Below the pieces are notes generated by a model, which was given only the letters and a program-made list of their open reading frames with translations, was not told the origin of the DNA and did no database searches. A stretch of DNA of 64,000 nt from an uncultured Acidimicrobiaceae bacterium (GTDB lineage Bacteria > Actinomycetota > Acidimicrobiia > Acidimicrobiales > SZUA-35): contig CAZYMB010000008.1 of assembly GCA_964648795.1 (NCBI GenBank), positions 8,401-72,400 of the forward strand. Reading direction: 5' to 3'. Below are positions 1,372 through 48,452 of the stretch, piece by piece. The first letter of the stretch is position 1, and every line of letters starts with the position of its first letter. A program made the translations under genes and the position numbers.

Positions 1372-3387
1372 TTAGTCAACGAGGGTGGCTCTGCCGCCAA
1401 ATCCAATGGTTCCTGTAATATTTTGTGCAGGTGCACCGGCAAAGGTATCCTGAGAAACGACTTCCAGTATAAGTTGGTCTGTAGGAGCGGTGGTAGGAAG
1501 CGAACCAAGGTCAATAGTGCCGTTTCCGCCAGGACCGATAACCGCTACACCGGTAAAATCAGGTAGGGCAACCCCGTTTCTGTCCTTGACTGTTATTACT
1601 AGTTCGGATAAAGAACCTTCAAAGTCATCGAATTCTAGCGTGCCCCATTCTGCTCTTCCCCCATCACACTGACAAGGCAAAAGCCTAAACTCTGGTTGTG
1701 CTGGGTTACAGTCTTCTAAGTCAGAAGTGAAGAAATCCAACCCAGATTCGTGTGTCATCGTGCCAATACAGTCGCTATCGCCGGGTAGGGGCGTATAGCT
1801 GTAGGTACGACCCGGGGTGACCCTTTGTCCACCATTTTCAGGACAAACCTGTCCCGTATTAAGATCAAAGCAGTGCGTGAGATCGTTACTCTGATCCGCT
1901 CGGTCTTGATTCCAGCTGTAGAGAAAAAGCCGATCACCATGGCTTATTGGCTGCCAGGACACTCCGTCTGGAAGTCGTGAAAACGAACCAGAAGTGGGAT
2001 CAGTTTTGTAGCCGACACTATGAATATTCTGCAGCAGCGTATCCAAAGGCTCCGAGCTAGACACGTCATTTCCATCTCTATCCACGCAACCTAATTGGTT
2101 CTGTCTACTTTCCTTATCATCAATACCGAACCAACAAACGCCCGTGTGTGTGTCACCGTCTGTTCGCTCCCACAGACTGCCGATGCCATTTCCCTCGACT
2201 CTGGCAACGCCAAACCCGGAGCATGCATCCGCAGTGTTCAAATCGAAACAGATTATTCGGCCATCAAAGTCACTATGGTTACTAATCCCGTAGTATTGTC
2301 GATTTTCTAGCTCAAGGGTTTCCGGCTGCAGAGTTCTGCGCCAGCGAGGGTAGTTGCTGTTCGCACTCCAAGGGTTTCTTGCCCTTGCTTCGGACCAGTC
2401 ACTAGGGCTTGTTGTCCCGCATGATGCACCGCCGGCCACTTCAAAGCAGTGCACTCTTAGGTCTCTGTCTATTGAATAAACACGGCCGTTCTTAACAACA
2501 GGCGTTGTCTGTGGTGAATGAATATCTTGGCCGCTATCGCTACGTCTCGTTATAACTTCAGGGAAGGTGTCGATGCGAACAAAATCTGGAAAACTAGAAC
2601 AAGAGCGACCATCTAACCCGACACAACCAATTCCGTAGGGGGTTTCAGCTGCCCCTGGATTCGGCCTCTGAGCAGCGTAGAAGAGCTGCGTACCGCCATC
2701 GTAAGTCAACTTTGACTCCAACGCTGTAGCTGTATTTAGTCGGGGAACTTGGAACTCACCTGAATCACACAAACGCTCTTCAAATACATTCACGCAAACC
2801 AGCTGACTATCATTTCGATAACTCAAATTGCTACTCTGGTTCGAGCCAACGTGATGGTTTAGCGCATACAATCTCAGGTCACCATCGACTTCGACGAACA
2901 GAGGCTTATAGCCGTCGCCGTCCCCATTTAATGGAAAGTTGAAATTACCGTCTGAAACAGTAATCTCACTCTCGCAACCAAAGCAGGACCCAGTGGCTGC
3001 TGTTGCTGACCTGTCTACTCGGACATTGTCAGTAATCAACTGAGAGAAGAACTGGGCTACATTCGCATCCGTTATATTGATCTGCACGCTCCCGTCAGCA
3101 AGCACATCCGGAAGAAAGCTAAGTGAACCATCAGTCGGGTCGAACCCATTAGCAAGAAGAATATCTCTTACAAACTCTTCTAGCTCAGCCTCAGTAATGT
3201 CACCACGCTCTAGCGCTTCAGCACCAGCAAGCGCAGCCAAGTCAGCTGCAGTCTGTAACTCGGAAGCACGCAAGTAGAACGAACCCAAGTCAATTGCGAA
3301 TGCTGAAAGAAACAACATCGGCACAAACAGAATTACCGTCAACGGGAGAATCTGTCCAGATTCGCCAAAACAGAAATATCGTTTCAT
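1372..3387 (-). CDS. TadG-like protein (TadE/G-like N-terminal anchor) with a large exported Cys-rich repeat body, paralog 1
   Basis: 671-aa ORF. The N-terminus GESGQILPLTVILFVPMLFLSAFAIDLGSFYLRASELQTAADLAALAGAEAL fits the Flp pilus-assembly TadE/G-like anchor (hydrophobic helix plus LQxAADxAALAGA). The body has about 18 Cys in recurring pairs (LVCVN..LCDSG, IGCVG..SCSS, VHCFE..SCGT, IICFDLNTADACSG, THCFDLNTGQVCPE). The adhesin role is inference. Confidence 0.8.
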   Translation of the reverse strand: MKRYFCFGESGQILPLTVILFVPMLFLSAFAIDLGSFYLRASELQTAADLAALAGAEALERGDITEAELEEFVRDILLANGFDPTDGSLSFLPDVLADGSVQINITDANVAQFFSQLITDNVRVDRSATAATGSCFGCESEITVSDGNFNFPLNGDGDGYKPLFVEVDGDLRLYALNHHVGSNQSSNLSYRNDSQLVCVNVFEERLCDSGEFQVPRLNTATALESKLTYDGGTQLFYAAQRPNPGAAETPYGIGCVGLDGRSCSSFPDFVRIDTFPEVITRRSDSGQDIHSPQTTPVVKNGRVYSIDRDLRVHCFEVAGGASCGTTSPSDWSEARARNPWSANSNYPRWRRTLQPETLELENRQYYGISNHSDFDGRIICFDLNTADACSGFGVARVEGNGIGSLWERTDGDTHTGVCWFGIDDKESRQNQLGCVDRDGNDVSSSEPLDTLLQNIHSVGYKTDPTSGSFSRLPDGVSWQPISHGDRLFLYSWNQDRADQSNDLTHCFDLNTGQVCPENGGQRVTPGRTYSYTPLPGDSDCIGTMTHESGLDFFTSDLEDCNPAQPEFRLLPCQCDGGRAEWGTLEFDDFEGSLSELVITVKDRNGVALPDFTGVAVIGPGGNGTIDLGSLPTTAPTDQLILEVVSQDTFAGAPAQNITGTIGFGGRATLVD

Positions 3388-3460
3388 ATACCTTAAAACG
3401 GCAAGTTAGAGGACGAACTGTACCCTGCAGACTTACATGTAAGGAAACAGGCCATATGGC

Positions 3461-5470
3461 CTAGTCAATGAGCGTAGCTCGGTTTGTTACCGATATCTGG
3501 CCGTCAACTGCATCATCCCAGACAAATCCTGGGCTTACCTCGGCATCAAACTGCAGACGTAGGCTCTGATGATCTTCAGTCGTGATCCCTTCGGATGCGA
3601 GGTCGATTGTTCCATTATTGCCATTTGCAAATATGTCTTCACGGTTAATCAACACATCCGAACCGTCATCGCTAAGCACGGTCACAAATAACGAGGTAAA
3701 CACTTCTTCAGCACGGCCACCTAAATCAAGAGTGCCCCATTCAACCTCACCAGTTGAACAAGCACATGGCGTAATGCGCACACCTGCAGGGCCGCCTGGA
3801 TCGCAGTCGGCAAGGTTGGTGTCAAAGAATTCAGGTCTGTTGAAGTGGCCCAGTGAACCAATACAACCAGTAGTGCCGATCTCGCTTAGTGTGTAGGCCC
3901 GGTACAAGTCTTGGCGAGTGCCGCCAGATTCTGGGCAGAGTTGGCCCGTGTCTAGATCGAAGCAACGAATCAGCTCACGGGAGTCAATATTTGGAGTGAC
4001 CGTATTGCCGGGGACAAAGAGGCGATCCCCAACTCGAAGTGGTTCAAGGTAGAAACCTGAGAGTAGGCGAAAGAAACGATTTTGTGCTTGTGCTGAGCTG
4101 CCATCCCAGAGGTTCAGCCGCTTAGCTTCTGATTCCAAGGTTCCTATAGGAATCTCATTGCTGTCGTTCTGTCCCTGACGGTTCAAACACTCTAAGTCGT
4201 TAGACCATGTGGCGTAGCAGACACCGTCATGGCCACCTGAGGCATCAACGTTCTCGAAGAAAGACGAAACAACACCAGAGGCTCGCCCTGGGTTAAACCC
4301 CGAACATGGAGCATTGCTATCAAGGTCGTAGCAAACTATCCAAGATCCACCAGATCGTGGATGAAATGCAGCATAGAGTCGTTCATTAATTTGAATCGAA
4401 TCAATAGTCGAGCGATCAACACGGTAATTATTGGTGGAGTCGAGATAGCGATCATTACGAGCACTCGACCATGCAGCTGCTCCGTCAGGCTGAGTTCCAT
4501 TTACCCCTGCACATGGCTGGTTGGTTGAAGTTTCTAGGCAGTACACATTTAGGCGGTAGTCGATGCTGTAGACACGCCCATTGTGAACAACAGGGTCTGT
4601 CTGTGGAGCTACAACATCTTGGGCTGCAATGCCGTTGCGCAATTGCACTCGGCCCCATACCCCAGACTGAACAAAGCCACTGCCAGAAACCCCACTGCAC
4701 TGTTGACCCCGTACTGTGACACAGCCAATACCGTACGTTGTACTGCTGCCACCGTTTCTATTTTGGTATGAGTAGTAAAGGTTGCCTTGCGCTTCATCGA
4801 CCGCAAGTTCTGGTTCCCAGCTTGTAGCTGTCTCCAGCCTGATGGGCCAACCTACTCCGGCGCCATCGTTACAGCGTTGGCGAGTATTGAAATCTACACA
4901 GACCAACTGATTGGTGCCTTGTGTAGAACCAACGTGGTGGTTTAGTGCATAAAATCTTAACTGACCGTCGACATTCACATAGATGTTCTTATAGCCGTCA
5001 CCATCGCCAATTTCTGGAAAGCTAGCGGTGGGAGGAGCAATCAAAACCCCTTGAACACAATCGAAACAGCCACCGGTAGTTGCGGTAGCTGTTCTATCCA
5101 CTTGAACTTCATCGGTAATTAGCTGAGAGAAAAACTGGGCTACATTTTGGTCAGAAACGTCAACACGAACACCAGTACCGTCTACCAAATCGTAGTTGTA
5201 CTGCAAAGATGGATCACTCACGTCAAAACCATTAGCTTCGAGTATGCCTTCGATCAAGTCCTGCAAGTCCGATTCCTCAAAGTCGTCACGCGACAACGCT
5301 TCTGCACCAGCCAGTGCTGCAAGGTCCGACGCAGTCTGGAGTTCAGATGCTCTCAAATAAAAGGAGCCTAGGTCAATTGCAAATGCTGAAAGAAACAACA
5401 TCGGCACAAATAGGATTACTGTCAACGGGAGAATCTGTCCAGATTCTCCAAAGATGAAATATCGTTTCAT
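3461..5470 (-). CDS. TadG-like protein with a large exported Cys-rich repeat body, paralog 2
   Basis: The track ORF is 3461..5557. I prefer the internal start MKRYFIFGESGQILPL at 5470, which matches the paralog 1 start and its upstream GGTAT context and avoids overlap with the recombinase gene. It aligns end to end with paralog 1, with conserved Cys positions (LVCVD, IGCVT, VYCLE, IVCYDLDSNAPCSG, IRCFDLDTGQLCPE) and a C-terminal RATLID. Confidence 0.8.
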   Translation of the reverse strand: MKRYFIFGESGQILPLTVILFVPMLFLSAFAIDLGSFYLRASELQTASDLAALAGAEALSRDDFEESDLQDLIEGILEANGFDVSDPSLQYNYDLVDGTGVRVDVSDQNVAQFFSQLITDEVQVDRTATATTGGCFDCVQGVLIAPPTASFPEIGDGDGYKNIYVNVDGQLRFYALNHHVGSTQGTNQLVCVDFNTRQRCNDGAGVGWPIRLETATSWEPELAVDEAQGNLYYSYQNRNGGSSTTYGIGCVTVRGQQCSGVSGSGFVQSGVWGRVQLRNGIAAQDVVAPQTDPVVHNGRVYSIDYRLNVYCLETSTNQPCAGVNGTQPDGAAAWSSARNDRYLDSTNNYRVDRSTIDSIQINERLYAAFHPRSGGSWIVCYDLDSNAPCSGFNPGRASGVVSSFFENVDASGGHDGVCYATWSNDLECLNRQGQNDSNEIPIGTLESEAKRLNLWDGSSAQAQNRFFRLLSGFYLEPLRVGDRLFVPGNTVTPNIDSRELIRCFDLDTGQLCPESGGTRQDLYRAYTLSEIGTTGCIGSLGHFNRPEFFDTNLADCDPGGPAGVRITPCACSTGEVEWGTLDLGGRAEEVFTSLFVTVLSDDGSDVLINREDIFANGNNGTIDLASEGITTEDHQSLRLQFDAEVSPGFVWDDAVDGQISVTNRATLID

Positions 5471-5546
5471 ATACCTATTAACAACGGCAGAAAAACCACA
5501 AAAATGAATCCTGTAGAAGTACACGGAAGAAATTGGTCTATACGAC

Positions 5547-6578
5547 CTATGCGCCAAGTTCTCCCAAAATAGTATTAACCGCAGTGGCGCGTGAAGTGTG
5601 GTGCAGCCCCTCAGCGGACAGTCTGAGGTACTGACTCGTAGTTGAAAGGTTTTTGTGTCCTAGCAGAGCCTGTAATTCAGCGGGATTTGTTCCGTAGCTG
5701 AGCTGCGAGACAGCATAAGTATGTCGGAAAGCGTGTGCTTTCTCACCTGGGGGCTTGGAAACTCCTGCCGTCGTGAGCCAGTTATCAACCAAGTTTTGCA
5801 AAGCTTGATTATTTAGAGCAGACCCGTTCTTACGAACGAATAGCACATCATCTTGGTCCGCCCCACCAAGGTCTGACTCTCGCCGTTCCGTCAGGTAGTC
5901 ATCGATACTGCTAACTATCTCGGCTGATATCGGAACGACTCTGTCCTTGTTGCCCTTTCCCGTAACCCGTATCTTCATTGGTTCTGCACGCTCAATCGAG
6001 GCAAGCGACAAACCACATAGCTCAGCCGAGCGAAGGCCACAACCAGCCAACGTAGCAACCATCGCGACATCTCGTTTCGGCCAGTGTGCTCGCAAGCTCT
6101 CAGGGGGAGCGCTAGCCGCAGAAAATATTCGTTGAAGTTCTTGAACGTTGAAAGCGACCGGCAGGCGATCACTAACCTGAGGCGTCTCGAAGTCGGTAGT
6201 GGGGTCTTGGCTTATATGACCATGTTTAACACACCAGCCACAAAAGCCTCTCAAAGCTGAAAGCATTCGACCTCGAGATGATGCAGCCTTTCCTTGATCT
6301 ATCAGTACCGAAAAAACCTGAGCCAGGTTTGCGTCAGTAAAGTCGCTTACCGTTATTCGCTCAAGAGCTTGCGATGAAATGGGCTCATCTGACTCGATAA
6401 CTGGCCTTGCATCTATGTCTGCCAGAGTGTTAGCGAATAGGGCAAGATCGTTTCTATATGCTTGCTCAGTCTTATCTGAAAAGCCACGCCGAGACCGGAC
6501 ACGACTGTCAACAATCCAGCTGTCTACCAAATCTGTTAGGCATGCTCCCATAGGTAATACATTAGTCGCAGAGGCCAT
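5547..6578 (-). CDS. Tyrosine site-specific recombinase, XerC/XerD/integrase family
   Basis: 343-aa ORF. The C-terminal catalytic region has GCGLRSAEL (Arg), AHAFRHTYAV (HxxR) and LLGHKNLSTTSQYLR (H..Y nucleophile). The N-terminus is a SAM-like core-binding region (YRNDLALFANTL). I cannot tell whether it is the housekeeping Xer or a module integrase. Confidence 0.8.
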   Translation of the reverse strand: MASATNVLPMGACLTDLVDSWIVDSRVRSRRGFSDKTEQAYRNDLALFANTLADIDARPVIESDEPISSQALERITVSDFTDANLAQVFSVLIDQGKAASSRGRMLSALRGFCGWCVKHGHISQDPTTDFETPQVSDRLPVAFNVQELQRIFSAASAPPESLRAHWPKRDVAMVATLAGCGLRSAELCGLSLASIERAEPMKIRVTGKGNKDRVVPISAEIVSSIDDYLTERRESDLGGADQDDVLFVRKNGSALNNQALQNLVDNWLTTAGVSKPPGEKAHAFRHTYAVSQLSYGTNPAELQALLGHKNLSTTSQYLRLSAEGLHHTSRATAVNTILGELGA

Positions 6579-15622: not shown

Positions 15623-15709
15623 GTCGGAGTGGCGGAATTGGCAGACGCGCTAGCTTGAGGGGCTAGTGACCTAACGGTCGTGGGGGTTCAAGTCCCCCCT
15701 CCGACACCA
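15623..15709 (+). tRNA. tRNA-Leu (anticodon GAG), long variable arm, CCA encoded
   Basis: Hand fold: acceptor GTCGGAG/CTCCGAC, anticodon stem CTAGC/GCTAG, loop TTGAGGG, variable arm TGACCTAACGGTCGT, T-arm GGGGG-TTCAAGT-CCCCC, 3' ACCA. Confidence 0.9.
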
Positions 15710-15732
15710 TTATTTGGGACTAGGGTTCATCT

Positions 15733-16371
15733 GTGCAAACTAATACTCATGCTCTAATAGGTTTGGCCGGTTTCTGGCGTAGGTCTCTGCGGGGGTCCGG
15801 CTGGGCCTCAGTGGTCGGTGCAGTTCTACCTGATGCGTTTATTGGGGCACTTTTGGCAGTTTCACGAGCCAAGAAGATACCCAATAAACAAATTTGGTCA
15901 GAAGAGTACTTTAAGGAGCCTTGGGTTACTAGGGGAGCGATTTCTAACTCTGTTCCTCTGTGGTCTGCATTGTTGCTCGGCGGTACGATACTGAAAGTAG
16001 TACATCCAAAGACGGGTGAGCTAGTAACCATTGCTGCAAAGAGCGGTTTAAGTCACCTTGCAATCGATTTTGCTACTCATGCAGACGATGCTCATCAACA
16101 CTTCTGGCCGATATCGGACTGGAAGTTCAATTCGCCGGTTTCTTATTGGGATGTGCGGCACCATGCAAACTATGTCATGCCTGTCGAAGGCGCGATTGGT
16201 CTAGCGGCTATCAAGTCGCTGTGGCCTAAGACAACCTCAATACTGCAGCGTGGTGGTCTTGTCCTGTTTGGTGCAGCTTCTACTGCACTTGTGCTCGGCC
16301 CGGCCATACGGCCCCTAGCAACGCGAATATGTCAACCGAAAGATGCCGAAGGACCTTTGGAGTCCAAGTAG
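15733..16371 (+). CDS. Membrane-bound metal-dependent hydrolase-like protein (YdjM-like), tandem paralog 1
   Basis: 212 aa with a GTG start. Motifs are THALIGLAG, LPDAFIG and HLAIDFATHADDAHQHFWPISDW (His/Asp-rich), plus several TM segments. The family assignment is tentative. Confidence 0.55.
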   Translation: MQTNTHALIGLAGFWRRSLRGSGWASVVGAVLPDAFIGALLAVSRAKKIPNKQIWSEEYFKEPWVTRGAISNSVPLWSALLLGGTILKVVHPKTGELVTIAAKSGLSHLAIDFATHADDAHQHFWPISDWKFNSPVSYWDVRHHANYVMPVEGAIGLAAIKSLWPKTTSILQRGGLVLFGAASTALVLGPAIRPLATRICQPKDAEGPLESK

Positions 16372-16419
16372 ACCTAAGCACAGGTTTCGGCCATAGCACC
16401 GGAGGCCTAAGATTGGGTT

Positions 16420-17013
16420 GTGCAGACCACTACACATGCTCTGATTGCCTTAACGGGGTTTCAACGCAAATCTATACCTCGGTCTGGGTGGGCTGCCGTC
16501 ATTGGTTCGGTACTACCGGACGCATTTATTGCAGTCTTCATCCCTGTTACCTTCGCCCGAGGTATATCGGCTCAACAGGCATTCGATGTTGAATTTTTCA
16601 ATGAGCCTTGGGCAACAATTGGAGCTATATCCAATTCATTCCCGCTCTGGTCACTCGTTTTAGTTGCCGGGGTTATTCTCAGGAGTCGCAACCCGCAAGC
16701 TGGCAAGCTAGTAACAGTCGGCGCCCTGAGTGGCTTGGCTCACCTAGTCGTTGATTTCTTTACTCACGCAACAGATGCGCACCGGCACTTGTGGCCGATA
16801 AGTAATTGGCGCTTTGAGTCACCGTTCTCATACTGGGAAGTCGAGCATCACGCTAACTTTGTCATGCCTATCGAAGGAGCTATTGGACTAGTTGCGGTAA
16901 AGCTTCTTTGGCCTAGAACTACTTCGAAGCTACAGCGTATTGGATTGGTTCTCGTGGGAGTAGTCGCCGTTGGCCTACTGGTTAGCCCGATTGTTAGACT
17001 GGCCGACTCCTAG
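16420..17013 (+). CDS. Membrane-bound metal-dependent hydrolase-like protein (YdjM-like), tandem paralog 2
   Basis: 197 aa with a GTG start. It is collinear with paralog 1 (THALIALTG, LPDAFIA, HLVVDFFTHATDAHRHLWPISNW). Confidence 0.55.
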   Translation: MQTTTHALIALTGFQRKSIPRSGWAAVIGSVLPDAFIAVFIPVTFARGISAQQAFDVEFFNEPWATIGAISNSFPLWSLVLVAGVILRSRNPQAGKLVTVGALSGLAHLVVDFFTHATDAHRHLWPISNWRFESPFSYWEVEHHANFVMPIEGAIGLVAVKLLWPRTTSKLQRIGLVLVGVVAVGLLVSPIVRLADS

Positions 17014-22437: not shown

Positions 22438-23883
22438 CTAACTTTGGGAGAGGCTGAAGCCACCAACTCCAGTTTGTAACTCAAAGCCACTTCCTGGACC
22501 AGCACCTGTATCTGCTGAACCATCAATGGGTCCAACAAATGCACTAGCTGCTACCCGTTTTCCGTTACTGCCATCTGAGGTGAGATTATTGGACGCTTGC
22601 GCTGAACCTTGGTTAGCGAAGTCCGTTCCATTTGAGAAGAGGGTGTTATTGCGGATGACTCCGCCGGAGCCTTCCTCTGCCAGAATCCCTGTGTTCCCAG
22701 CACGAAATACAACATTGTTTTCGACCACCGCATTATTTGAATCAAACCTAATGCCAATAGCGCTGTTGCATCTATTTCCATCTCCACCAGTGCCACTCGC
22801 CGATATATCGTGGATAACGTTGCCGATTATCGTTAGGTTTTTGGAAGAATTAACTCTGACCGCAGCCTCGCACCAGGAGTCAATGTTGAAGATGTGGTTA
22901 TTGCGAACAGTTACGTCAAAGGTTGAACTCTTAACGTTAACTGCTTCAGAAGTAGCGTTCCCGTTGTCGTGAAGAACATTATTTTCGACAGTTATATTAT
23001 TAGTAATGTCTCCAGCTTTAGCTCCATTACCTACGTATACGAGTTCACCGAACACAGAGTACCTCAAGGATTGACTGGTGTCAGTACCTGGCCGGTTTCC
23101 TGTATTTGAGATATCGCAGCCAGCGACCCTCACTTGAGAAGAACCATCACGCACATGGAAACCTTCTTGTCCTGTACCTGAAATAACACAATTGAGTACC
23201 TCAACCTGTTGAGAAGCATTTACTCCGATTCCTCTCATCGAGTTTGTAGCCTCAAGACCGTTAACAACGATATGGCTAGAGTTGTCGACAGATACCGCTG
23301 ATGTACTTGGGCCCGCTTCGACACCCCCGAGAGAAAAAACTGCTCCTCCATCTGGCGCGGTGAACTCAATTGGGTTATCCGGCTGTCCATTTTTACCGTT
23401 TATAAGAAGGTGCCCATAATTACCTGGCGCAAAGCAGACAACATCACCCGGGCCAGCCTGTCCAACAGCACCTGCAACGTTGCCACCAGAGCTAACCTGA
23501 ATTGTACAAGATCCGCCGCCGCCAATCTGGCTCTGTTGTGAGCCAGCTGTAATCTGTCGTTGGGACTGGTTGCCTGTGTTTGGCAGCTGATCTTGTCCTT
23601 GAACTCTAAGATTGCTATCGCTAAGATCTTGTCCTTGAACTCTAAGATTGCTATCGCTAAGAGTTGTTGGAGTATTTGTTGCTGCACTAGATCTTGAGAC
23701 ATCCAACTCTAGATTGTCTGCTACGTCTTGTGTACTAGGCGCTGACTGTGCGACCTGAATTGCATCAGAGTCTCCACCAAAACTGAAAACTACAACCAAC
23801 AAAAGCATCACCAAAAGTACACTGCCTGTTATGAGATTCTTCTTTGACATGTTTGCCGTCAAACTCGCCCACAGTTTCGCCAT
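22438..23883 (-). CDS. Membrane-anchored right-handed parallel beta-helix repeat protein
   Basis: 481 aa with an N-terminal TM helix (LITGSVLLVMLLLVVVF). About 22-residue turns recur, with Asn/Gly ladders (VVNGLEATNS, VLNCVISGTGQEG, VENNVLHDNGN, VRNNHIFNI, IIGNVIHDI, VENNVVFRAGN, IRNNTLFSNG). Confidence 0.7.
   Translation of the reverse strand: MAKLWASLTANMSKKNLITGSVLLVMLLLVVVFSFGGDSDAIQVAQSAPSTQDVADNLELDVSRSSAATNTPTTLSDSNLRVQGQDLSDSNLRVQGQDQLPNTGNQSQRQITAGSQQSQIGGGGSCTIQVSSGGNVAGAVGQAGPGDVVCFAPGNYGHLLINGKNGQPDNPIEFTAPDGGAVFSLGGVEAGPSTSAVSVDNSSHIVVNGLEATNSMRGIGVNASQQVEVLNCVISGTGQEGFHVRDGSSQVRVAGCDISNTGNRPGTDTSQSLRYSVFGELVYVGNGAKAGDITNNITVENNVLHDNGNATSEAVNVKSSTFDVTVRNNHIFNIDSWCEAAVRVNSSKNLTIIGNVIHDISASGTGGDGNRCNSAIGIRFDSNNAVVENNVVFRAGNTGILAEEGSGGVIRNNTLFSNGTDFANQGSAQASNNLTSDGSNGKRVAASAFVGPIDGSADTGAGPGSGFELQTGVGGFSLSQS
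23589..23660. repeat. Perfect 36-bp tandem duplication (2 copies) inside the beta-helix protein gene
   Basis: GATCTTGTCCTTGAACTCTAAGATTGCTATCGCTAA occurs at 23589..23624 and again at 23625..23660. It encodes the duplicated peptide SDSNLRVQGQD(L/Q) in the linker after the TM anchor. Confidence 0.9.
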
Positions 23884-26332: not shown

Positions 26333-27382
26333 ATGAAATTAGCGAACTTTGGGTTAGTTGGGATTCCGATTCTTATTGTTCTTGGCACAACCGCTGTGGG
26401 TTCAGCTAGTGCTCCTGGACCAAATACCTGCCTCGGTAACCCAGTTACGATCACTGCTCCTTCCGGGCATCTGGAAAATGGTACGCCGATCTTTAGGGGT
26501 ACAACCGGTCGAGATGTAATCTCTGGTACGACTGGCAACGATGTCATTTATGGTTTCAAAGGCAACGATATTATCTGCGGATGGGGTGGCGACGACTCGA
26601 TATTTGCAGGCCAGGGCGCAGACACCGTTTTCTCTGGCGAGGGCGACGACATCGTCCAAGGCGGTTGGGGAGCCGATGTACTTTATGGTGGACCTGGCAA
26701 CGATGTGATCCGTGGCAGCAACGGAGCAGATACCATTTACGGTGAAGCTGGAACGGACAGACTTATTGGAAACCTCGGACACGACACTTTGATTGGCGGA
26801 CCTGATTACGACACTACAAACGGAGGACTTGGTACAGACAACTGCGAAAGCGAAAACGTCTTAACTTGCGAATCCGGAACGCAGAATACATCGAGTAGCG
26901 GGAACACCTCTGCTACGAAATCGACTTCTGGCAATGCCAATACGGCACCAGATTACGCTGGAACGCCTGCTTCCGTGCTAGCAATCGTCGACCATATCTT
27001 TCCTGCTAGCCAGCACGAAAACGTACGTACCATCTTTGCTTGCGAGAATCCTTGGTTGGACCCAACAATAGAGGGGCTCCACAGCCGACCTGAAGACGGA
27101 ATCGACTATGGTTTGTTTCAGATCAACGCCAAGGCTCACACTGATGCCATCCCTAAAGCCCTTCCATCGCTATCGGCGAAGTCTCAGCGAATCTATGCGA
27201 ACAAAGGCCTAATTGGCTCTCTGAAAGATGCGCACTTCAACATTGAGTACGCCTACCATCTAACCCAAACAGAGACCTGGCGTGCCACAATCGACCACCC
27301 CACCTTTGATGCAAATCCATGGCGACGAACCCGCTGGGGAGCCTGGACATGTGGCAAAGACACCACGCCTTGGCACTTCTAG
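26333..27382 (+). CDS. Secreted RTX-type calcium-binding repeat protein with a C-terminal lysozyme-like/transglycosylase-like domain
   Basis: 349 aa with an N-terminal signal-like helix (FGLVGIPILIVLGTTAVGSASA). There are at least 10 GGxGxD-type nonapeptide repeats (GTTGNDVIYGFKGNDIICGWGGDDSIFAGQGADTV...). After a Ser/Thr linker comes IFACENPW...GIDYGLFQIN, resembling the catalytic-Glu and GLxQ motif of SLT/Rpf-type muramidases. Confidence 0.7.
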   Translation: MKLANFGLVGIPILIVLGTTAVGSASAPGPNTCLGNPVTITAPSGHLENGTPIFRGTTGRDVISGTTGNDVIYGFKGNDIICGWGGDDSIFAGQGADTVFSGEGDDIVQGGWGADVLYGGPGNDVIRGSNGADTIYGEAGTDRLIGNLGHDTLIGGPDYDTTNGGLGTDNCESENVLTCESGTQNTSSSGNTSATKSTSGNANTAPDYAGTPASVLAIVDHIFPASQHENVRTIFACENPWLDPTIEGLHSRPEDGIDYGLFQINAKAHTDAIPKALPSLSAKSQRIYANKGLIGSLKDAHFNIEYAYHLTQTETWRATIDHPTFDANPWRRTRWGAWTCGKDTTPWHF

Positions 27383-27766
27383 CTAATACGCTAGCTAGCA
27401 CTTAAGAACATAGTTCCTCAACTGCTTCCTCAAAAGCCATCGAACAACCTCCGCCAGGGGGGACCTCCAGGTCCTGCTAAGATTGCGCTACTTCAGCCAA
27501 TTACAAGAAAAATCAGAGCTGGGATAATTATTAGCCACTCTGGGCGTAAGAATATTTTCATTCGAATCTCCGAGGTCTGGGTCAAGAGACTCTAGAACAG
27601 TCCAGCGCCCAGGGGTGTCAATGGAGCAAGGTTTCTTAGTGATGCCTGAATGGCTAGCCAAAGGCGCCTAAATAGCCTGAAAAGAGACTCGGATTCTCTT
27701 AACAAGCTCTTAACACTAATAACCGATAATGTAACTGTGAGTTGGGTCGAACGCGTAGGAGTGACC

Positions 27767-28438: not shown

Positions 28439-28458
28439 AGTATTTAACTTCTCTGAGA

Positions 28459-41202: not shown

Positions 41203-41799
41203 ATGCTTTCAGTACTGATTACAGGGCCTATTGGATCTGGCAAATCCTCTGCTTTAGCTACTTTTGGGGAGCGTGGATGGCTTACTTTAGCTGCCGACGA
41301 CGTGGTTGCTCTGCTCCAACAGCCTTCGGGAGCAGCTTTTCCTTATATTTTGGAACGCTTCCCCACGGCTACTCTGACCGACTCAGATGGCTCCACCGTT
41401 ATTGATAAAGCCAAACTAAGGGAACAGATATTCAGCGATAAATTGGCTAAGGAATCTCTTGAGGCCATCCTGCACCCACTAGTCCAGAACGAAATTACTA
41501 ACTGGCTAACAACTCACAGCGACCACAACCGAGCCGTCGAAATACCACTTATCGATTCTGAGAGTCCTTATCTGGAACTCTTTGATCATATTATTGCAAT
41601 CACAGCTCATGATGCTTCCATCGATCGTAAAGCAAGCCAGACTGGTTTAACGACCGAGCAAGTAGCGACCATCCGCAGCAATCAACCAAGCAATGACGCA
41701 TACATCGCACTCGCTGACACCCACATAGCCAATGACTCAACCGAAGAAGAATTTGTTCTCCGAGTTGCTGAACTCGCCGGACAACTAATTATGCGTTAA
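41203..41799 (+). CDS. coaE: Dephospho-CoA kinase
   Basis: The track ORF has a TTG start at 41182. I prefer the ATG at 41203 (MLSVLITGPIGSGKSS P-loop). It sits in the conserved position between rpsA and uvrB in Actinomycetota. Confidence 0.8.
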   Translation: MLSVLITGPIGSGKSSALATFGERGWLTLAADDVVALLQQPSGAAFPYILERFPTATLTDSDGSTVIDKAKLREQIFSDKLAKESLEAILHPLVQNEITNWLTTHSDHNRAVEIPLIDSESPYLELFDHIIAITAHDASIDRKASQTGLTTEQVATIRSNQPSNDAYIALADTHIANDSTEEEFVLRVAELAGQLIMR

Positions 41800-42730
41800 A
41801 CGTTTCTAGAATTGATAGTGCCGCCGGCCCAAGAATTACAATAAACAGACTTGGGAAGATGCAGAAAACCATTGGGATAAGCATCTTAACTGGAGCTTTC
41901 TGAGCCTTTTCTTGCGCTTCCTGACGTCGACGGATTCTCATCTCATCAGCCTGTCCACGTAACACTCGCCCGATACTTACACCAAATGTGTCGGCCTGAA
42001 TCATGGCTAGGACGAAAGAGCGAACTTCTTCAGAGTTAATTCTCTCTTGCAGATTGCGGAGAGCATCAGCCCTAGAAGAACCAGCTGTGACTTCACCCAA
42101 CATGCGGGCAAACTCTCTGCTTAACGGACCTGGTACATTCTCAACCACACGATCCACTGCCTGATCAAAACCCAAACCTGATTCGACACAAATGGTCAGA
42201 AGGTCAAGGGTGTCTGGTAGAGCACGACGGATTGCAACTTCACGCTCTTCGACTTTCGCATCAAGTCGTTTGTTCGGAAGAACGAATGCACCAACAGCGA
42301 CAAATCCGACTAGACCAATTTGGCGAACTAGCGTATTGAAGAATGGAAGTGGTACGAAGAAAATTATCAGAGCTATCGGAACGATTGCAAGAATGAAAGC
42401 TGCACGTTGAAAGAGAAAGCTCTCTACTGCCTTAGTCTTGTCAATTCCAGCACGAAGATGCTTATCTTTGACACCTGCAACGTAATCTGGTGGGCTGAAC
42501 TTTTTACCAACGCCTTCGATTACACCAGCAGCTGGACCAAGCAGACGAGTTCTTAGAGGGACCAACAGCGACTTGTCACGATCGCCTACTATCTCGAACT
42601 CTTGAAGCTGGCTCAAAGCATCGCGTGCAGAAACACGCTCTTGCTGACGGCTAACGATGACAAATGCCACCAAAGCCACACTTAGTGCTCCAAGAACTGG
42701 GATAGCTACTGTGAGAATTGAGCTAAGCAT
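41789..42730 (-). CDS. tadC: Tad/Flp pilus assembly inner-membrane platform protein TadC (T2SS F-domain)
   Basis: 313 aa with an N-terminal TM, a cytoplasmic helical T2SSF-like domain (LPDTLDLLTICVESGLGFDQAV) and C-terminal TMs. It has an 8-nt overlap with tadB. Confidence 0.8.
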   Translation of the reverse strand: MLSSILTVAIPVLGALSVALVAFVIVSRQQERVSARDALSQLQEFEIVGDRDKSLLVPLRTRLLGPAAGVIEGVGKKFSPPDYVAGVKDKHLRAGIDKTKAVESFLFQRAAFILAIVPIALIIFFVPLPFFNTLVRQIGLVGFVAVGAFVLPNKRLDAKVEEREVAIRRALPDTLDLLTICVESGLGFDQAVDRVVENVPGPLSREFARMLGEVTAGSSRADALRNLQERINSEEVRSFVLAMIQADTFGVSIGRVLRGQADEMRIRRRQEAQEKAQKAPVKMLIPMVFCIFPSLFIVILGPAALSILETFNA

Positions 42731-44621
42731 CGATAGTCACCACCTTACGCATCCAAAGGACGCCAATAACGCCAGCCACAAACCCGACCACTAGCAATAG
42801 CCAGCCAATCGGTTTTGCGAATAGCGGTGAGATGTATCCAGGATTAACAACAGAAATTACAGTCAACAGCGCCGGCGGCATTAGAGCCAGAATCATTGCC
42901 GACAATCTACCTTCCGCTGTTAAGGCTTTAACCTCACCACGAAGTCTTTCACGAAGAGTAATAGTTTCAGCAACAGTCGTAAGTAGCTCATTCAAGTTAC
43001 CGCCGACTTCACGCTGAATACCGATCGCTAATACGGTCCAGGCAAAGTCAGGACTATCCATGCGTTCACCAACACCGCCAAGGGCTTCTTCTAGATCCTT
43101 ACCGAGTGCTGCTTCAGACATAGCCTTTTGTAATTCAGAACCCATTGGTTCAGCAATTTCTGCCGAAACAGCATCTAAACCTTGAGGCAGTGAATAACCA
43201 GCACGCAAGGTACCACCTAGAAGGTTGAGGGTATCAGGTAGCTGAAGCTCAAACTTTCGGAGACGACGTCGAGCCAAAGCTTGGAGAACAATCACCGAAA
43301 CTACAAGCGACATTAATATCACAAGCCCGACGGCCAAGATGCTGCGGGTTGTGAATCCAACCAGTAGTGCCAAGACAACGGTCGCACCAAACGCTAGAAG
43401 TAGAGCTTCACCAGCTCTAAGTGGAAGGTCAGCTTTCTCAAGATCCGAGTTGATTCGCTCTGTAAATCCTCTACCTTCGGTAAAGGTTTCGGTTGCGGAC
43501 ACTGCCTTTTTTACGATTGCAGACTGTATCAGCTGATCTGCTTGACTTAGACCTTCTCCGTCAGCAGTTTGGTTACCACCGATATAACTAGAAAGAACGC
43601 CGTCAATACTGTTCTCCCGATACTGAAGAATCAAGTTAGCAATCATAAAGACAGCAAACGCAATTACTCCAGCCGCCAGAACTAGTGAAATGTAGAAGAC
43701 CCATCGACCAGAAAAGAACGATCCAGAAGCGTCAGGATCGATCACAACTGGAGCGTCCAACGCAACTGCACCTGTACTAACAGTATTTGCAGCAAAGCCA
43801 TGAGCTAATTGGCTACCACCAACCGTGATATCCAAAGCCTGTCGCCCTGTTAAGTCTGCTGGAGCATTTAGCTCAAAGCTCCACCTAGAAATAGATGCAG
43901 CATTTTCAATCGAGGTCGCAAGACTTTCTTCCTGAACGATATAGCCCGAAGAAAGTTCAACTAAACGATTGATCGACTGTGTGACTGATCCGGCGCTTGG
44001 AACAACTGCTAGTTGAATTCCACGAACCACGAAGTCATCATTAAAGCCCTGGTCTAGCGAACCCAAACCTGGAGTTACTAAGACAACTGTCTTTTGAGCA
44101 CTCTCATCATCGAGTTGACGAATCGCTAGCGAGATTGCCCCAGTAATGTCTGACTCACCTTGTGAGGCAAGGTTTGACAGCTCATCTAGAGCGTCTGCTG
44201 GTGTTCCAGCTCCAGACAGAACACGAGAGACCGTACCAGCTTCTACTAGAGAAACTGTTACATCGTCACTCAGCCCAGAAAGGGCTGACTCCACTGCTGC
44301 CACAGTGGCATCCAGTTGACCAGCGTCTCCACCCGGACCGACGTCTACAACTAGCGTTACCTGAGAAGAACCTTGACTGACCTCACTACTCGCTGAAACT
44401 GTGACAGATTCTCCGGCTACTGCAAATTCAGCCGAAGCTAGATCTGTAGCGGGGTCAACAGAAATCAGTGATGCCGTAAGTTGTTCTCCAACGTCGTTAA
44501 CTTCGACTAGCTGAACAGCAGGAGCTGATTCTTGCCCTTGAGCTGACGCCAAAGAGGTCGAAGCCAATAGAAGAGCAACGACTACCAAGAGTAGTGAAAC
44601 TACTTTAGTATTCTTAGCCAT
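42723..44621 (-). CDS. tadB: TadB-like platform protein fused to an N-terminal exported, roughly 300-aa vWA-like domain
   Basis: 632 aa with a signal peptide (VVSLLLVVVALLLASTSLASAQG). Residues about 85-230 resemble a vWA fold with a degenerate MIDAS (TLVVDVGPGGD...GESDITGAISLAI...KTVVLVTPG). A TM lies near residue 306, followed by a T2SSF domain (LPDTLNLLGGTLRAGYSLPQGL). Confidence 0.75.
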   Translation of the reverse strand: MAKNTKVVSLLLVVVALLLASTSLASAQGQESAPAVQLVEVNDVGEQLTASLISVDPATDLASAEFAVAGESVTVSASSEVSQGSSQVTLVVDVGPGGDAGQLDATVAAVESALSGLSDDVTVSLVEAGTVSRVLSGAGTPADALDELSNLASQGESDITGAISLAIRQLDDESAQKTVVLVTPGLGSLDQGFNDDFVVRGIQLAVVPSAGSVTQSINRLVELSSGYIVQEESLATSIENAASISRWSFELNAPADLTGRQALDITVGGSQLAHGFAANTVSTGAVALDAPVVIDPDASGSFFSGRWVFYISLVLAAGVIAFAVFMIANLILQYRENSIDGVLSSYIGGNQTADGEGLSQADQLIQSAIVKKAVSATETFTEGRGFTERINSDLEKADLPLRAGEALLLAFGATVVLALLVGFTTRSILAVGLVILMSLVVSVIVLQALARRRLRKFELQLPDTLNLLGGTLRAGYSLPQGLDAVSAEIAEPMGSELQKAMSEAALGKDLEEALGGVGERMDSPDFAWTVLAIGIQREVGGNLNELLTTVAETITLRERLRGEVKALTAEGRLSAMILALMPPALLTVISVVNPGYISPLFAKPIGWLLLVVGFVAGVIGVLWMRKVVTIDA

Positions 44622-45978
44622 TCGACTTCCTCATTCTCTGTTCAGCAATTCTCACTGCTTCAGGAGCGAACATCTCAGGGCCCATCTTGATACCGTGATC
44701 AGCAAGCTTCTCGGTGAACTTAGGTCGAACACCCGTCGGCTTCAAATCGCCCTTATAACGACCATTGTCGTCAAGGCCGGCTGAATAGTCAAACTTGAAG
44801 ATGTCCTGCAAAGTAATAACCTCGCCTTCCATCCCGACAACCTCGGTTATATGCGTAATGCGACGAGTTCCGTCCTTTAGGCGCTGCAACTGAACAATTA
44901 CGTCAACTGCAGACGAAACTTGTTCCCTAATTGCTCGCACCGGTAGATCAAATCCAGCCATCATCACCAGAGTTTCTAGACGAGCAAGTGAATCGCGGGG
45001 GTTGTTAGCGTGAAGTGTTGTCAGAGACCCATCGTGACCAGTATTCATGGCCTGCAACATATCTAACGCCTCACCAGAACGACACTCACCGACAACAATT
45101 CGGTCAGGTCTCATACGAAGGGTGTTCTTCACGAGGTCACGAATGGTGACTTCACCTTCGCCTTCAATATTTGGAGGACGAGTCTCTAATGAAAGCACAT
45201 GGTCCTGACTAAGTTGAAGTTCTTTAGCATCCTCAACTGTGATGATTCTTTCATCGTCAGGAATGAAGCTTGATAGCACGTTCAAGGTTGTTGTCTTACC
45301 GGTACCAGTACCCCCAGAAACAATTACATTTAGACGGCCAACAATACAGGCTTGTAAAAACCTTGCTGAATGCACAGACAAAGTACCAAATCTGATTAGA
45401 TCATCAATTCGTAGTGGTTCGGCTGAGAACTTTCGAATAGTAAGAAAAGGTCCGCCTAAAGCCAACGGAGATATCACAGCATTTACGCGAGAGCCATCAG
45501 GTAGACGAGCATCGCACAAAGGCGAACTCTCATCGATTCGACGACCAATCTGTGCAACTATCTTGTCGATAATGCGACGTAGATGAGCTTCATCAACGAA
45601 ATGAATATCTTCTTTCGAAATACCACCTGTTCGTTCAACATAGATGTTGTCGGGCCCATTGCACATGATTTCAGTTACATCGTCGTCACGTAGGAGCTGG
45701 TCAATAGGACCATAGCCAAGAACATCGTCAGAGACTTCTTGAATAACTTGAGCCTTCTCCATTGCTGACATCGGAGTATTCTCTTGCATTAAGAATCGCT
45801 GCAGAGCTTCCTGAACACGAGCACGCAGCTCGACTTCGCCCATAGCCTTGTCGTATAGAACCGGGCCTAACTCTTCAATAAGGTTCTGATGAACTCGATG
45901 ACGTAGCTCGCCCAACGCACGCTTATGCTGATCTTGATCTCCATCAGATTTGTCACTAATTCTGTCGTACAAGCTCAT
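44614..45978 (-). CDS. cpaF: Tad/Flp pilus secretion ATPase CpaF/TadA
   Basis: 454 aa. Motifs are Walker [12 protein letters not shown], Asp box, Walker B RIVVGECR and His box [12 protein letters not shown]. Confidence 0.93.
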
Positions 45979-45987
45979 TGCTGTCCT

Positions 45988-47283
45988 CTATCCAAAAAAC
46001 TTTCTTCGGTTCTTTCCAGCTGGTGCTGCAAGAACTCCACCTTCTATGAACAAACTCGCAAACTTCTCAAATGCTCTCGCCACTCCAGAGTTAGGAGCAT
46101 CGATTACAACTGGTGCGCCCTTGTTTACCGAAATAGGGACTACAACATCACTTGGAACGTGAGCAGCAGCTTCGATTTTAAGTGCTCTCTCTACTTCACT
46201 AGCCTGCAATTTGACCTTTGAGTTCGCACGGTTTAGAACTAGTTTGATTCGCTCAGGTCCTACACCCAACATCGATAGTGCATTCATTGCGATACGAACG
46301 TTCTTGATATTTGGAATGTCCAAACCGGTGACGATTACAACTTCATCTGATTGCTCAAGAGTCTTGAATACAAGGTCATCGAGAATCGCTGGGAGATCTA
46401 CGATCACATACTCAGCAAATGTTTTACAAAGTTCAATGATCTTGATGAAGTCTTCAGCATTATACTGATCAGCAAAAGCTGGCTCTGCTGGTGCTGGCAA
46501 TACCATAAGACCAGAAGGCTCATGAGTTGTCATATAGCTCTTGATTAGTTCAGAATCTAGCTCATCTGCTCTTCCGATAGCATCAACAACGCTGTGTTGA
46601 GACTGCTTTAGTTTTAGCATTACAGCTACATCGCCGAACTGAAGGTTTCCGTCAATCAAAACGACTGGACGACTAGCTCTTCGAGCTAACACAACACCCA
46701 GATTCGTTGCCGTTACAGACTTACCGGAACCACCCTTAGTCGAGAATACAGTAACCTGTTGCCCAACTTGTCCAGGGCCTAGATCTTGTAATGCAGGAGG
46801 AGCAGCCGGAGCCTGAGTGACACCTTGAGCTGTAGGCAAACCTTCAGCTACACGGTGAACGGCTTCGACAAGTTGCTCTGACTCAATTGGAGCATTAAGA
46901 ACATCACGAACACCGTGACGCATAGCCTGTTGCATCAACTCTGTAGACAACTCTGCAGTCACCAGTATCGTGGCGACATTTGGATACATTCGCTTCCATT
47001 CATCAACTCGTTCAAGTTCTTCGCTAGTTGCACACGATGGACCCATTACGATTACGCGTGACTCAAGACCAATTTGTGGTTCTAGAGCGCCTAGCGAGTA
47101 GGCAGCATCAACTGAACCGTCGAACATACCGCTTAGGTAGTCACAAACCGATTGATCTGCGTCGACAACAGCCAAGGAGGCTCCACCAACTAGCTTGTAC
47201 TCTGAATCCGGGCTAACAGGTTGTTCACCTGTTGAGCCACCAAAGGAGTCAAAGTCCATTGATGAAAAATCGTACTCTTCCAT
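45988..47283 (-). CDS. cpaE: CpaE/TadZ-like pilus assembly ATPase (ParA/MinD fold with an N-terminal receiver-like domain)
   Basis: 431 aa. It has the deviant Walker A FSTKGGSGKSVTATNLG and an N-terminal pseudo-receiver region. Confidence 0.85.
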   Translation of the reverse strand: MEEYDFSSMDFDSFGGSTGEQPVSPDSEYKLVGGASLAVVDADQSVCDYLSGMFDGSVDAAYSLGALEPQIGLESRVIVMGPSCATSEELERVDEWKRMYPNVATILVTAELSTELMQQAMRHGVRDVLNAPIESEQLVEAVHRVAEGLPTAQGVTQAPAAPPALQDLGPGQVGQQVTVFSTKGGSGKSVTATNLGVVLARRASRPVVLIDGNLQFGDVAVMLKLKQSQHSVVDAIGRADELDSELIKSYMTTHEPSGLMVLPAPAEPAFADQYNAEDFIKIIELCKTFAEYVIVDLPAILDDLVFKTLEQSDEVVIVTGLDIPNIKNVRIAMNALSMLGVGPERIKLVLNRANSKVKLQASEVERALKIEAAAHVPSDVVVPISVNKGAPVVIDAPNSGVARAFEKFASLFIEGGVLAAPAGKNRRKFFG

Positions 47284-48452
47284 TAGCCCTCACCATTATC
47301 CGGTACTTCTACTTCTTGTTCGATCTGAGCTGGTTCGTCTACTACTGCGTTATCGGCAGATGCCAATTCAGCTGGTGTCAGGTTCGCCGTGGTGACACCA
47401 TCAATAAGGTTCAAGACACTGCCTTCTTCTGACCCAGTTAGGGCTCCAAAGTCTTCACCAGGTGCTATCTGTCTTGTTGGGTCCAGTGGGACGATTGGGC
47501 GTGAAACGTAACTCTCTGGAACTAGTGATAGATATAGTCCACCACCACCGCTTGATCCTGCACGACTGGCGTTCAAGACAACTTGAACATCTTTAGGCGA
47601 TACTGCCAAAGTAACAAGTGCTGAACCTGCAGCTAGTGTAGCCGTATCACCTTCGCCACCTTGACCTACGCTTGAGGCTATTGACGAGTTAATCGCCAAT
47701 ACTCGAGTGTCCTGCAAGATGTAGCGTGATGTGTTCTGAGAAAGCTGGTCGGTAATCTCGATTAGATCGTTACCGGAAACCCAGTTAATTGCTTGCTGAC
47801 GTTGTGTATCGTTTAGTTCATCAAATGTAGGAACGTCATCGTTGTTTGCGCCAATTGCGCTACGAAGCCCAACCGGAACATAGACAGACTCAAGTCTTGC
47901 CGCTGCGTGAGCAGCCAATAGTTCTGCAAGTGATTGCTGCGATAGCAGTGCCACAGGGTCTTGTCCATCTTCTGGGTCTACAAGGCTTTCATGAGAAGCG
48001 ATAGATAGAACGTTGACGTGATCTCCTGGTCTAACCAAGCCTGCACCCCAACCGATTGGATCGACTGATATTGTTACAGACACTTCATCGTCTTCTAGAG
48101 CTGCGGATAATCCGGAACCTGCACTACGTGGGCTAGCGAAGTTGGAAGTCACTAGTGTGTGACCAATACCAAAGTCAGCTACTGCTACGAAGTCATCCAG
48201 GATCTGCGTCTCGGGGTCGGTGATTGCTGCAGCTGGCGCAATGGCCGCTGGAACCTGTACTTCTTCGATCGCTGCTAACACCTGGCTCTTAGTGGCGCCT
48301 CGGCTGAATGGTTCGGTCACACGGTAAACCGGTGTTGCCTCACCATCGGCTTGTGCATCAGACTGAAGGTTGTTTATAAACCAGAACAGACCTAGTGCTG
48401 CGATTAGGCCGACTATTGCGGCGATTCCTATACTTAATTTGCGAGCTCCCAC
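47283..48452 (-). CDS. cpaB: CpaB/RcpC-like Flp pilus assembly protein (SAF domain + beta-clip), acidic C-terminal tail
   Basis: 389 aa with a GTG start preceded by AGGAG. It has an N-terminal TM (LSIGIAAIVGLIAALGLFWF) and a SAF-like segment after it. It is the first gene of the tad operon, with a 1-nt overlap with cpaE. Confidence 0.7.
   Translation of the reverse strand: MGARKLSIGIAAIVGLIAALGLFWFINNLQSDAQADGEATPVYRVTEPFSRGATKSQVLAAIEEVQVPAAIAPAAAITDPETQILDDFVAVADFGIGHTLVTSNFASPRSAGSGLSAALEDDEVSVTISVDPIGWGAGLVRPGDHVNVLSIASHESLVDPEDGQDPVALLSQQSLAELLAAHAAARLESVYVPVGLRSAIGANNDDVPTFDELNDTQRQQAINWVSGNDLIEITDQLSQNTSRYILQDTRVLAINSSIASSVGQGGEGDTATLAAGSALVTLAVSPKDVQVVLNASRAGSSGGGGLYLSLVPESYVSRPIVPLDPTRQIAPGEDFGALTGSEEGSVLNLIDGVTTANLTPAELASADNAVVDEPAQIEQEVEVPDNGEG

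Follow-up and report, generated by a model that had tools for sequence, protein, structure and literature searches.

Two adjacent genes on the minus strand of a 64,000-nt stretch of DNA from an uncultured Acidimicrobiaceae bacterium (SZUA-35 lineage; assembly GCA_964648795.1, contig CAZYMB010000008.1, positions 8,401 to 72,400), hereafter referred to in its entirety as the window, encode paralogous proteins in which a pilin-like anchor precedes a long cysteine-rich body, and they raise the question of what such proteins do for the cell. An initial annotation, made from the letters alone, considered them alternative adhesins at the tip of a Tad pilus, comparable to the type IV pilus protein PilY1 and carried as cargo beside a tyrosine recombinase. 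The observations on which this proposal depended were all made: the TadE/G-like model PF13400 matches, the body is predicted to be a propeller and relatives occupy tad operons. The pilus-tip reading thus stands as far as the anchor, the propeller and the context of the relatives are concerned, with adhesion at the tip as the inferred part, while PilY1 as the comparator and the cargo module were not upheld. Both genes are best explained as encoding TadG/CpaL-class tip proteins of a Tad pilus with a propeller head, possibly used as alternative tips; by analogy with characterized tip proteins, this reading is given a probability of roughly two in three. The membership of both proteins in the TadG class is well supported, and their domain architecture, their family and the tad-operon context of relatives are matters of observation. 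What we infer from them is that the proteins are located at the tip and are adhesive, that their terminal strand docks, and that they employ the tad locus at a distance of 36 kb.

Architecture of the two proteins

Paralog 1 (P0001; 1372..3387, minus strand) is an open reading frame (ORF) of 671 amino acids (aa), and paralog 2 (P0002; 3461..5470, minus strand) comprises 669 aa from the start MKRYF. The annotated length of the first was correct, that of the second (670 aa) resulted from a coordinate placed 3 nt too far upstream, and the description of both as giant was overstated for proteins of ~670 aa. An alternative ORF for paralog 2, with a TTG start, spans 698 aa and extends to 5557; this is probably not the real start, since MKRYF and ~85 nt of alignable upstream sequence are common to both genes. 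The paralogs can be aligned over their full length, as had been noticed, with 43 % identity (BLASTP, E 2e-148), although the similarity is unevenly distributed: in a sliding window, protein identity reaches 97 % over residues ~1-60 and falls to ~20-50 % in most windows of the body, the propeller and sandwich described below having diverged to ~35-40 %. A conserved N-terminus and a diverged body are consistent with two heads constrained to one set of partners.

The TadE/G-like anchor proposed earlier was confirmed with a hidden Markov model, PF13400 being matched by residues 11-56 of both proteins (E 1e-11, 45 bits, and E 6e-11, 43 bits; gathering cut-off 22.3 bits). A conserved (E/D)-x-G precedes the hydrophobic stretch (GESG/QILPL in the window proteins and ERG/AVL... 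in relatives), and at the prepilin-peptidase site G/A-X4-(E/F), position +5 is Leu, not Glu or Phe. Paralog 1 contains 19 cysteines and paralog 2 contains 18, while 18 are invariant among 58 family members and retained in both paralogs (C135/138, 198/207, 255/263, 314/323, 380/389, 418/434, 506/515, 540/560 and 572/574); R126, A130, L669 and a G-D-G motif (157-159) are likewise invariant in the family. The number of conserved cysteines given in the initial annotation was therefore right, whereas the C-x(5-9)-C pairs that it placed every 50-60 residues are more precisely five C-x7-8-C pairs (198/207, 255/263, 314/323, 380/389 and 506/515) spaced ~55-70 residues apart. The Cys-poor tail was also recovered, with 97 Cys-free residues following C574 and ending in RATLVD in one protein and RATLID in the other.

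Structure prediction with AlphaFold2 (AF2) yielded a predicted local distance difference test score (pLDDT) of 65 from a six-sequence alignment, and a pLDDT of 83 with a predicted template modelling score (pTM) of 0.75 from 58 full-length family members. In the latter model, a 52-residue helix (10-61), a second helix (66-79) and four strands (89-95, 101-107, 124-132 and 139-144) form a pilin-type 'lollipop', with a pLDDT of 83-97 over residues 11-140. An all-beta body then extends to ~560 and is followed by a beta-sandwich (~565-662) and a last strand (667-669), the final block that includes this strand being modelled at a pLDDT of ~92. Mapped onto the minus strand of paralog 1, the short leader ending E-S-G and the hydrophobic alpha-1 helix, a putative pilin-core segment, occupy residues 1-61 (3205..3387), and the pilin-like head, with its second helix and strands as assigned by DSSP and with C135/C138, occupies residues 62-145 (2953..3204). 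The disulfide-rich predicted propeller runs from the G-D-G motif through residues 146-565 (1693..2952). The C-terminal sandwich predicted by the model strands covers residues 566-662 (1402..1692), carries C572/C574 ahead of the Cys-free part, and is mostly included in the profile match of non-TadG relatives; the terminal strand GGRATLVD, with its invariant L669, covers residues 663-671 (1375..1401).

A Foldseek search of the Protein Data Bank (PDB) with the model returned beta-propellers only: BtuG2 (E 1e-10), BamB, the WD40 domain of Fbw7 and the designed eight-blade Tako8. Target-normalized template modelling (TM) scores were 0.4-0.55 for BtuG, BamB, Fbw7 and Tako8 and ranged from 0.17 to 0.56 across the best 50 matches, the clearest BamB matches lying at ~0.45-0.55 and others lower. 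On the strength of the model, the body of both proteins is a predicted beta-propeller, so that the blade-like repeat body of the initial annotation was borne out. The cysteine pairs, judged by their spacing, would fall one per repeat, which is consistent with seven to eight blades. The comparison with PilY1 fared differently: PilY1 was not among the best 50 PDB matches, and no PilC/PilY1 Pfam match was found at E<=1 in the paralogs or among 58 relatives. A profile search of PDB sequences gave no match, a VWA Pfam match was found in neither paralog nor in any of the 58 relatives, and the BamB/PQQ-like model PF13360 had no match above threshold, with a weak one (E 1e-3) in only one of the 58 members.

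Relatives and their genomic context

The extent of the family depends on the search. A word-indexed search retrieved only nine matches and an exhaustive profile search 147 representative clusters at E<=1e-30, all from Acidimicrobiia wherever the source gives a taxon. Most clusters comprise proteins of 590-930 aa with a TadG-type N-terminus, 18-20 cysteines and a C-terminal PxL(V/T)(D/E), and PF13400 is matched in 57 of the 58 members. Scanning with alignment A4 added one Acidimicrobiales metagenome-assembled genome (MAG), and a metagenome scan seeded on the N-terminal motif recovered mostly generic TadG-like genes, of which three loci (L015, L019 and L023) serve as extra context only. No Pfam or NCBIfam model covers the propeller body in the 58 members, a few annotated members bear the source name 'TadG' or 'TadG-related', and the full-text literature search found no paper that treats TadG and a propeller together. 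The earlier impression that the domain combination is not a described family thus holds for the body and not for the TadG/CpaL class, which is known.

Within Acidimicrobiia tad operons, members of the family take the position of TadG. In one complete tad locus, the order tadC-tadB-tadA-cpaB, flp and tadE leads to the member P0024 and then to GGDEF/EAL genes; a 138-kb marine contig (L015) shows tadC-tadB-tadA-cpaB-flp-tadE, a 943-aa TadE fusion, a 781-aa member and again GGDEF/EAL genes. The order is tadE-tadE-P0048 in a MAG whose P0048 is among the closest relatives of the window pair, and tadE-P0041-tadE in another locus. Detached and tandemly duplicated copies also recur: P0060 is an orphan near the same uvrC-gap-pgk-tpi cluster as the window pair, although on its other side, P0005 lies between rpsJ and rplC, P0100 lies beside lhr, and P0003 and P0004 form an orphan tandem array with a third copy.

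Several further features of these loci were observed. The ribosomal insertion (L002, 7010-12670) splits a conserved operon between rpsJ (S10) and rplC (L3) with an 889-aa member, an ABC ATPase, a 526-aa protein and a 103-aa ORF, and an ABC ATPase also precedes the three-copy array (L003). A subfamily of 816-930 aa (P0003-P0005 and P0010-P0022) carries an insert of ~170-200 residues within the propeller (alignment A1, columns ~445-645), and these long forms are those seen as orphans and tandem arrays; the resemblance of the ~170-residue insert of P0003-P0005 to a ricin-type lectin, noted by eye, was dropped as no Pfam match was found. The 943-aa TadE-like minor pilin of L015 (6957-9788), directly upstream of the TadG-propeller gene, contains Pro/Thr-rich linkers and three repeated domains of ~150 residues; it is a second giant minor pilin of modular build in that operon. 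A right-handed beta-helix protein (PF13229) is encoded in the window (22438-23883, minus strand), and a similar one (27 % identity) directly upstream of P0060 (L005, 1783-3237). GGDEF/EAL proteins directly follow the family member in two tad operons (L009, 11965-15567; L015, 12061-15861), and in the window genome a GGDEF protein lies near the pair, just past fumC and just beyond the window start (L001, 13506-14378); propeller tips may be linked to cyclic di-GMP signalling.

The propeller-sandwich is not confined to TadG-like proteins, as it also occurs in Sec-signal and LPXTG-anchored proteins (P0125, LPATG; P0150, LPNTG). In these LPXTG-type relatives the profile match ends at ~635-647 of 650, short of the last strand, and the terminal motif is absent, whereas PxL(V/T)(D/E) also ends TadG-like proteins with unrelated bodies (P0007-P0009). 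Because the motif accompanies unrelated bodies and is missing from LPXTG carriers, we argue from this distribution that the terminal strand belongs with the TadG pilin scaffold, not with the propeller.

The presumed partner machine is encoded in the window itself, ~36 kb from the pair. As had been reported, the tad operon (41789..48452, minus strand) consists of five genes, specifying CpaB, a TadZ-like ATPase, TadA/CpaF, TadB (a VWA fusion) and TadC, and contains no pilin genes; neither a motif scan nor tblastn with Acidimicrobiia Flp and TadE queries detected Flp or TadE in the 64-kb window. The TadB protein (42723-44621, minus strand) comprises 632 aa; its N-terminus is signal-like, and residues 90-183 are a VWA_2 domain fused ahead of the T2SSF membrane domain. 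For a vWA domain in a Tad system this placement seems unusual. Beyond the tadC end, on the same strand as the operon and with an opposite-strand coaE in between, a HisKA_3 histidine kinase (203 aa, lacking a sensor or transmembrane part) and a LuxR-type response regulator (39803-41103, minus strand) are a possible regulator of the pilus genes. Elsewhere in the window, the stretch 26333-31929 encodes an RTX calcium-binding repeat protein, a 262-aa ORF, a 529-aa protein with peptidoglycan-binding domains, a MacB-type ABC ATPase and an FtsX permease, which may form a secretion or export cluster, and two YdjM-family membrane protein paralogs of 212 and 197 aa stand in tandem behind a tRNA-Leu(GAG) (15623-17013).

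The duplicated genes and the neighbouring recombinase

The pair is flanked by fumC, beyond its 3' side, and by uvrC, which is divergent from the recombinase, as stated in the initial annotation; the window, which belongs to a metagenome scaffold of 146,674 bp, further includes uvrC-rapZ-gap-pgk-tpi, uvrA, uvrB, coaE, rpsA and polA in the order that is usual in Actinomycetota. Both for the TadG-like genes and for the recombinase, the nearest relatives that carry a name come from Acidimicrobiales or Acidimicrobiia MAGs, which, taken with the gene order, places the DNA in that group.

At the DNA level, identity between the paralogs is 75 % in the first 264 nt, against ~45-50 % for the body. Within the first 30 codons (3298-3387 and 5381-5470), 22 of 27 identical residues use the same codon, compared with ~40 % elsewhere. 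Codons 8-14 of paralog 1 contain the 22-nt near-palindrome GGCGAATCTGGACAGATTCTCC (3345..3366), for which no chance match would be expected, and the same codons of paralog 2 contain the 22-nt palindrome GGAGAATCTGGACAGATTCTCC (5428..5449), with arms of 10+10 nt and a 2-nt centre; it is not conserved in the single-copy relatives of L005 and L006. The synonymous identity and the palindrome could reflect local gene conversion or a signal acting at the nucleic-acid level. Folding of the 5' regions as RNA was no better than that of shuffled sequences (z -0.3 and -1.1), and recent gene conversion across the whole genes was rejected given body DNA at ~45 % versus 75 % in the first 264 nt, unusual likeness being confined to the first 90 nt and to 85 nt upstream. 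Scans for promoters and terminators remained at background, save for a hairpin at the paralog 2 stop codon. Hairpins were seen ahead of each TadG-like gene (GGCCATATGGCC at 3448-3463 and GGTCGTATAGACC at 5535-5547), each beginning in the TAG stop of the upstream gene, and a substitution on both sides (C-G to T-A) preserves the stem; the first hairpin resembles a terminator, with a T-rich run behind it. It therefore seems that the upstream stop codon is exactly where the duplicated unit begins.

Upstream of the pair and co-directional with it lies a Xer-like tyrosine recombinase of 343 aa (5547..6578, minus strand). The recombinase had been recognised in the initial annotation and assigned to the XerC/D family. 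Its catalytic and SAM-like domains (PF00589 and PF02899) are present, so that the domains agree with that assignment, whereas the NCBIfam equivalog cut-offs are not reached (XerC, 194.7 versus 335 bits; XerD, 176.4 versus 330 bits). Orthologs form a graded series from 66 to 40 % identity, the named ones from Acidimicrobiales or Actinomycetota MAGs. One of them (L012, 65 % identity) occupies the same place, divergent from uvrC, and is followed by Fic, ABC and EamA genes and no TadG genes; a 718-aa gene downstream of it proved unrelated to the family. In no other relative does the contig extend over the downstream side, and the genes there differ from those of the window. In L005 a recombinase fragment of 57 % identity abuts uvrC, with a family member 9 kb off on the other side, and in L013 an ortholog lies within a toxin-antitoxin (TA)/AbiE island. 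G+C content is flat at 0.46-0.54 across 1-12 kb, no tRNA adjoins the recombinase, and family members elsewhere have no recombinase beside them. Since it adjoins uvrC in three or more related genomes, the recombinase looks like a resident gene beside uvrC, next to a stretch that varies. The idea of a cargo module is correspondingly weak, given that adjacency, the flat G+C content and the members elsewhere without a recombinase, and no evidence was found that the recombinase mobilises or switches the TadG genes.

Pilus tips, alternative readings and significance

How the two proteins might work is best seen against characterized systems. CpaL/TadG has recently been placed at the tip, by experiment or modelling, as a minor-pilin-like protein whose middle part of ~470 residues is largely dispensable for piliation (PMC13533445); pilus assembly requires its extreme C-terminus, which as a strand closes the pilin sheet at the protein's own N-terminus (PMC13533445; PMC12607857). 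CpaL combines the pilin module with a vWA domain (PMC12607857), the backbone of Tad tip complexes has been attributed to TadG, whose C-terminal domain is modular, and Myxococcus possesses four alternative, disulfide-rich TadE/F/G-like tips (PMC12075869). As the middle module is variable or dispensable in these studies (PMC13533445; PMC12075869), the missing vWA domain marks a subtype and not another class.

With Caulobacter CpaL and Aggregatibacter TadG the window proteins share an N-terminal pilin module, a middle of 400-500 residues, a conserved, predicted terminal strand and a length of ~600-700 aa, and their relatives are encoded after tadE/tadF in tad operons. They differ in that the middle is a predicted propeller and sandwich instead of vWA/MIDAS, in that the host is a monoderm actinobacterium whose tad operon lacks a secretin gene, and in that the window carries two copies, lying apart from any tad operon. 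The likeness to PilY1/PilC of type IVa pili consists of a propeller that would be located at the pilus tip, disulfide richness, a C-terminal strand proposed to enter the minor-pilin complex and, in Neisseria, two paralogous copies (PilC1/PilC2). PilY1, however, is not a pilin; it is exported by Sec and supplies its strand to PilK in trans, while the window proteins begin with a TadE/G-like pilin module in place of a Sec signal peptide, combine it with the propeller in one polypeptide and would use the strand in cis. TadG/CpaL, and not PilY1, is thus the right comparator; the role is already known and only the propeller head is new. The Kil system of Myxococcus xanthus (KilL/M/N 1-4) resembles the window pair in that a single Tad machine receives different tips from several paralogous TadG-like (KilN) proteins, in its disulfide-rich tips and in the separation of some tip gene sets from the machinery genes, although there whole TadE/F/G-like trios are duplicated, against the TadG-like gene only in the window, and the head domains differ. 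PilB (vWA) and PilC (lectin) of Streptococcus sanguinis likewise combine a pilin module with a grafted adhesin at the tip of a Gram-positive pilus, but belong to an IVa-like class and bear other grafted folds.

By extension from these systems, the N-terminal 145 residues would form a pilin module of a Tad (type IVc) pilus, with the alpha-1 helix of ~52 residues packing into the filament core together with TadE/TadF and the Flp pilin, and with no Glu or Phe at +5, as may be expected of the most apical subunit. The chain would leave this module to form the propeller, stapled by ~7 invariant cysteine pairs (nine in the whole protein), and then the sandwich, both displayed at the pilus tip as a binding surface. 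The last ~6 residues (R-A-T-L-V/I-D) would return as a strand that completes the pilin head, as in Caulobacter CpaL, and thereby license assembly of the tip complex. Given the near-identical alpha-1 helix and the same terminal strand, both copies should fit the same partners and the same machine, and a single Tad machine may in this way be provided with two alternative tips.

Several points weigh against assigning the pair to a pilus tip. It is orphaned from the tad operon, and neither the window nor the 10 kb beyond its start yielded a gene for Flp, TadE/F or a prepilin peptidase, so that a partner pilin set in this genome is assumed rather than seen; several relatives are orphaned too (L002, L003, L005 and L011), and the propeller matches (BtuG, BamB) are generic in kind. 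The TadG of Aggregatibacter actinomycetemcomitans is reported to have been described originally as membrane-anchored and not processed by TadV, which would leave room for a role at the base or in the membrane. A rival view is that these are surface proteins independent of pili, in which the PF13400 segment is an uncleaved signal-anchor that holds a disulfide-rich propeller, binding or enzymatic, at the cytoplasmic membrane's outer face or in the wall. The absence of tadE and flp within 64 kb, the propeller-sandwich in Sec-signal and LPXTG proteins unrelated to pili (P0125 and P0150) and the relatives that adjoin ABC transporters or a beta-helix protein in place of tad genes all fit it, but in tadE/flp operons the TadG position is taken by four distinct relatives, the predicted alpha-1 helix and four-strand head make up a pilin module and not a plain transmembrane anchor, and the motif of the terminal strand recurs in other TadG-like proteins while missing from the LPXTG versions, which leaves this view unlikely. 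That one or both copies are decaying, functionless duplicates might be supposed from the tandem duplication and the orphan position; it is hardly credible when both ORFs are intact, neither copy has lost the 18 invariant cysteines or other invariant residues, and the N-terminus is under strong purifying selection.

A more elaborate scheme would make the recombinase and the pair a switching or mobile cassette, with the palindrome as the site at which tips are deleted, duplicated or exchanged in phase or antigenic variation. The co-directional recombinase immediately upstream, the palindromes at the same codon position where none would be expected by chance, the codon identity of the 5' ends with their alignable upstream ~85 nt, the different genes downstream of an orthologous recombinase and the ortholog in a TA/Abi island could all be accommodated. 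The scheme is nevertheless very improbable, as the recombinase appears resident beside uvrC in three genomes, no G+C anomaly surrounds the candidate cassette and no flanking att-like repeats were found. The palindromes are not conserved in single-copy relatives, and their 2-nt centre is unlike the 6-8 nt spacers of Xer/integrase core sites; being in direct orientation, they could by recombination only bring about deletion. Because the paralogs are old by the divergence of their body DNA, there is no sign of exchange now going on. It is a similarly long shot that tip-adhesin cassettes are gained, duplicated and lost at the locus on the downstream side of the uvrC-linked recombinase, with the leader palindrome, kept in the DNA of both genes, as a recombination or regulatory site for propeller-tip switching; if true, it would represent a tip-variation system based on site-specific recombination in a free-living marine actinobacterium.

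For the reading as TadG/CpaL-class tip proteins, the significance lies in the head. Tad pili are widespread, but it is only of late that the occupant of their tip has been established, and for proteobacteria alone, where it is the vWA-carrying CpaL/TadG; in Acidimicrobiia the same pilin scaffold bears what is predicted to be a disulfide-stapled beta-propeller. A single polypeptide would thus join what type IVa pili divide between PilK, the apical minor pilin, and PilY1, the propeller adhesin with its licensing strand, which supports the notion of an ancient tip scaffold, composed of a pilin module and a returning strand, with a swappable head. The propeller itself represents an uncurated domain of ~420 residues in ~150 sequence clusters and, because it is also found on LPXTG wall proteins, looks like a general adhesin module of Gram-positive surfaces. 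The presence of diverged copies in tandem suggests that pilus binding is tuned in uncultured marine actinobacteria.

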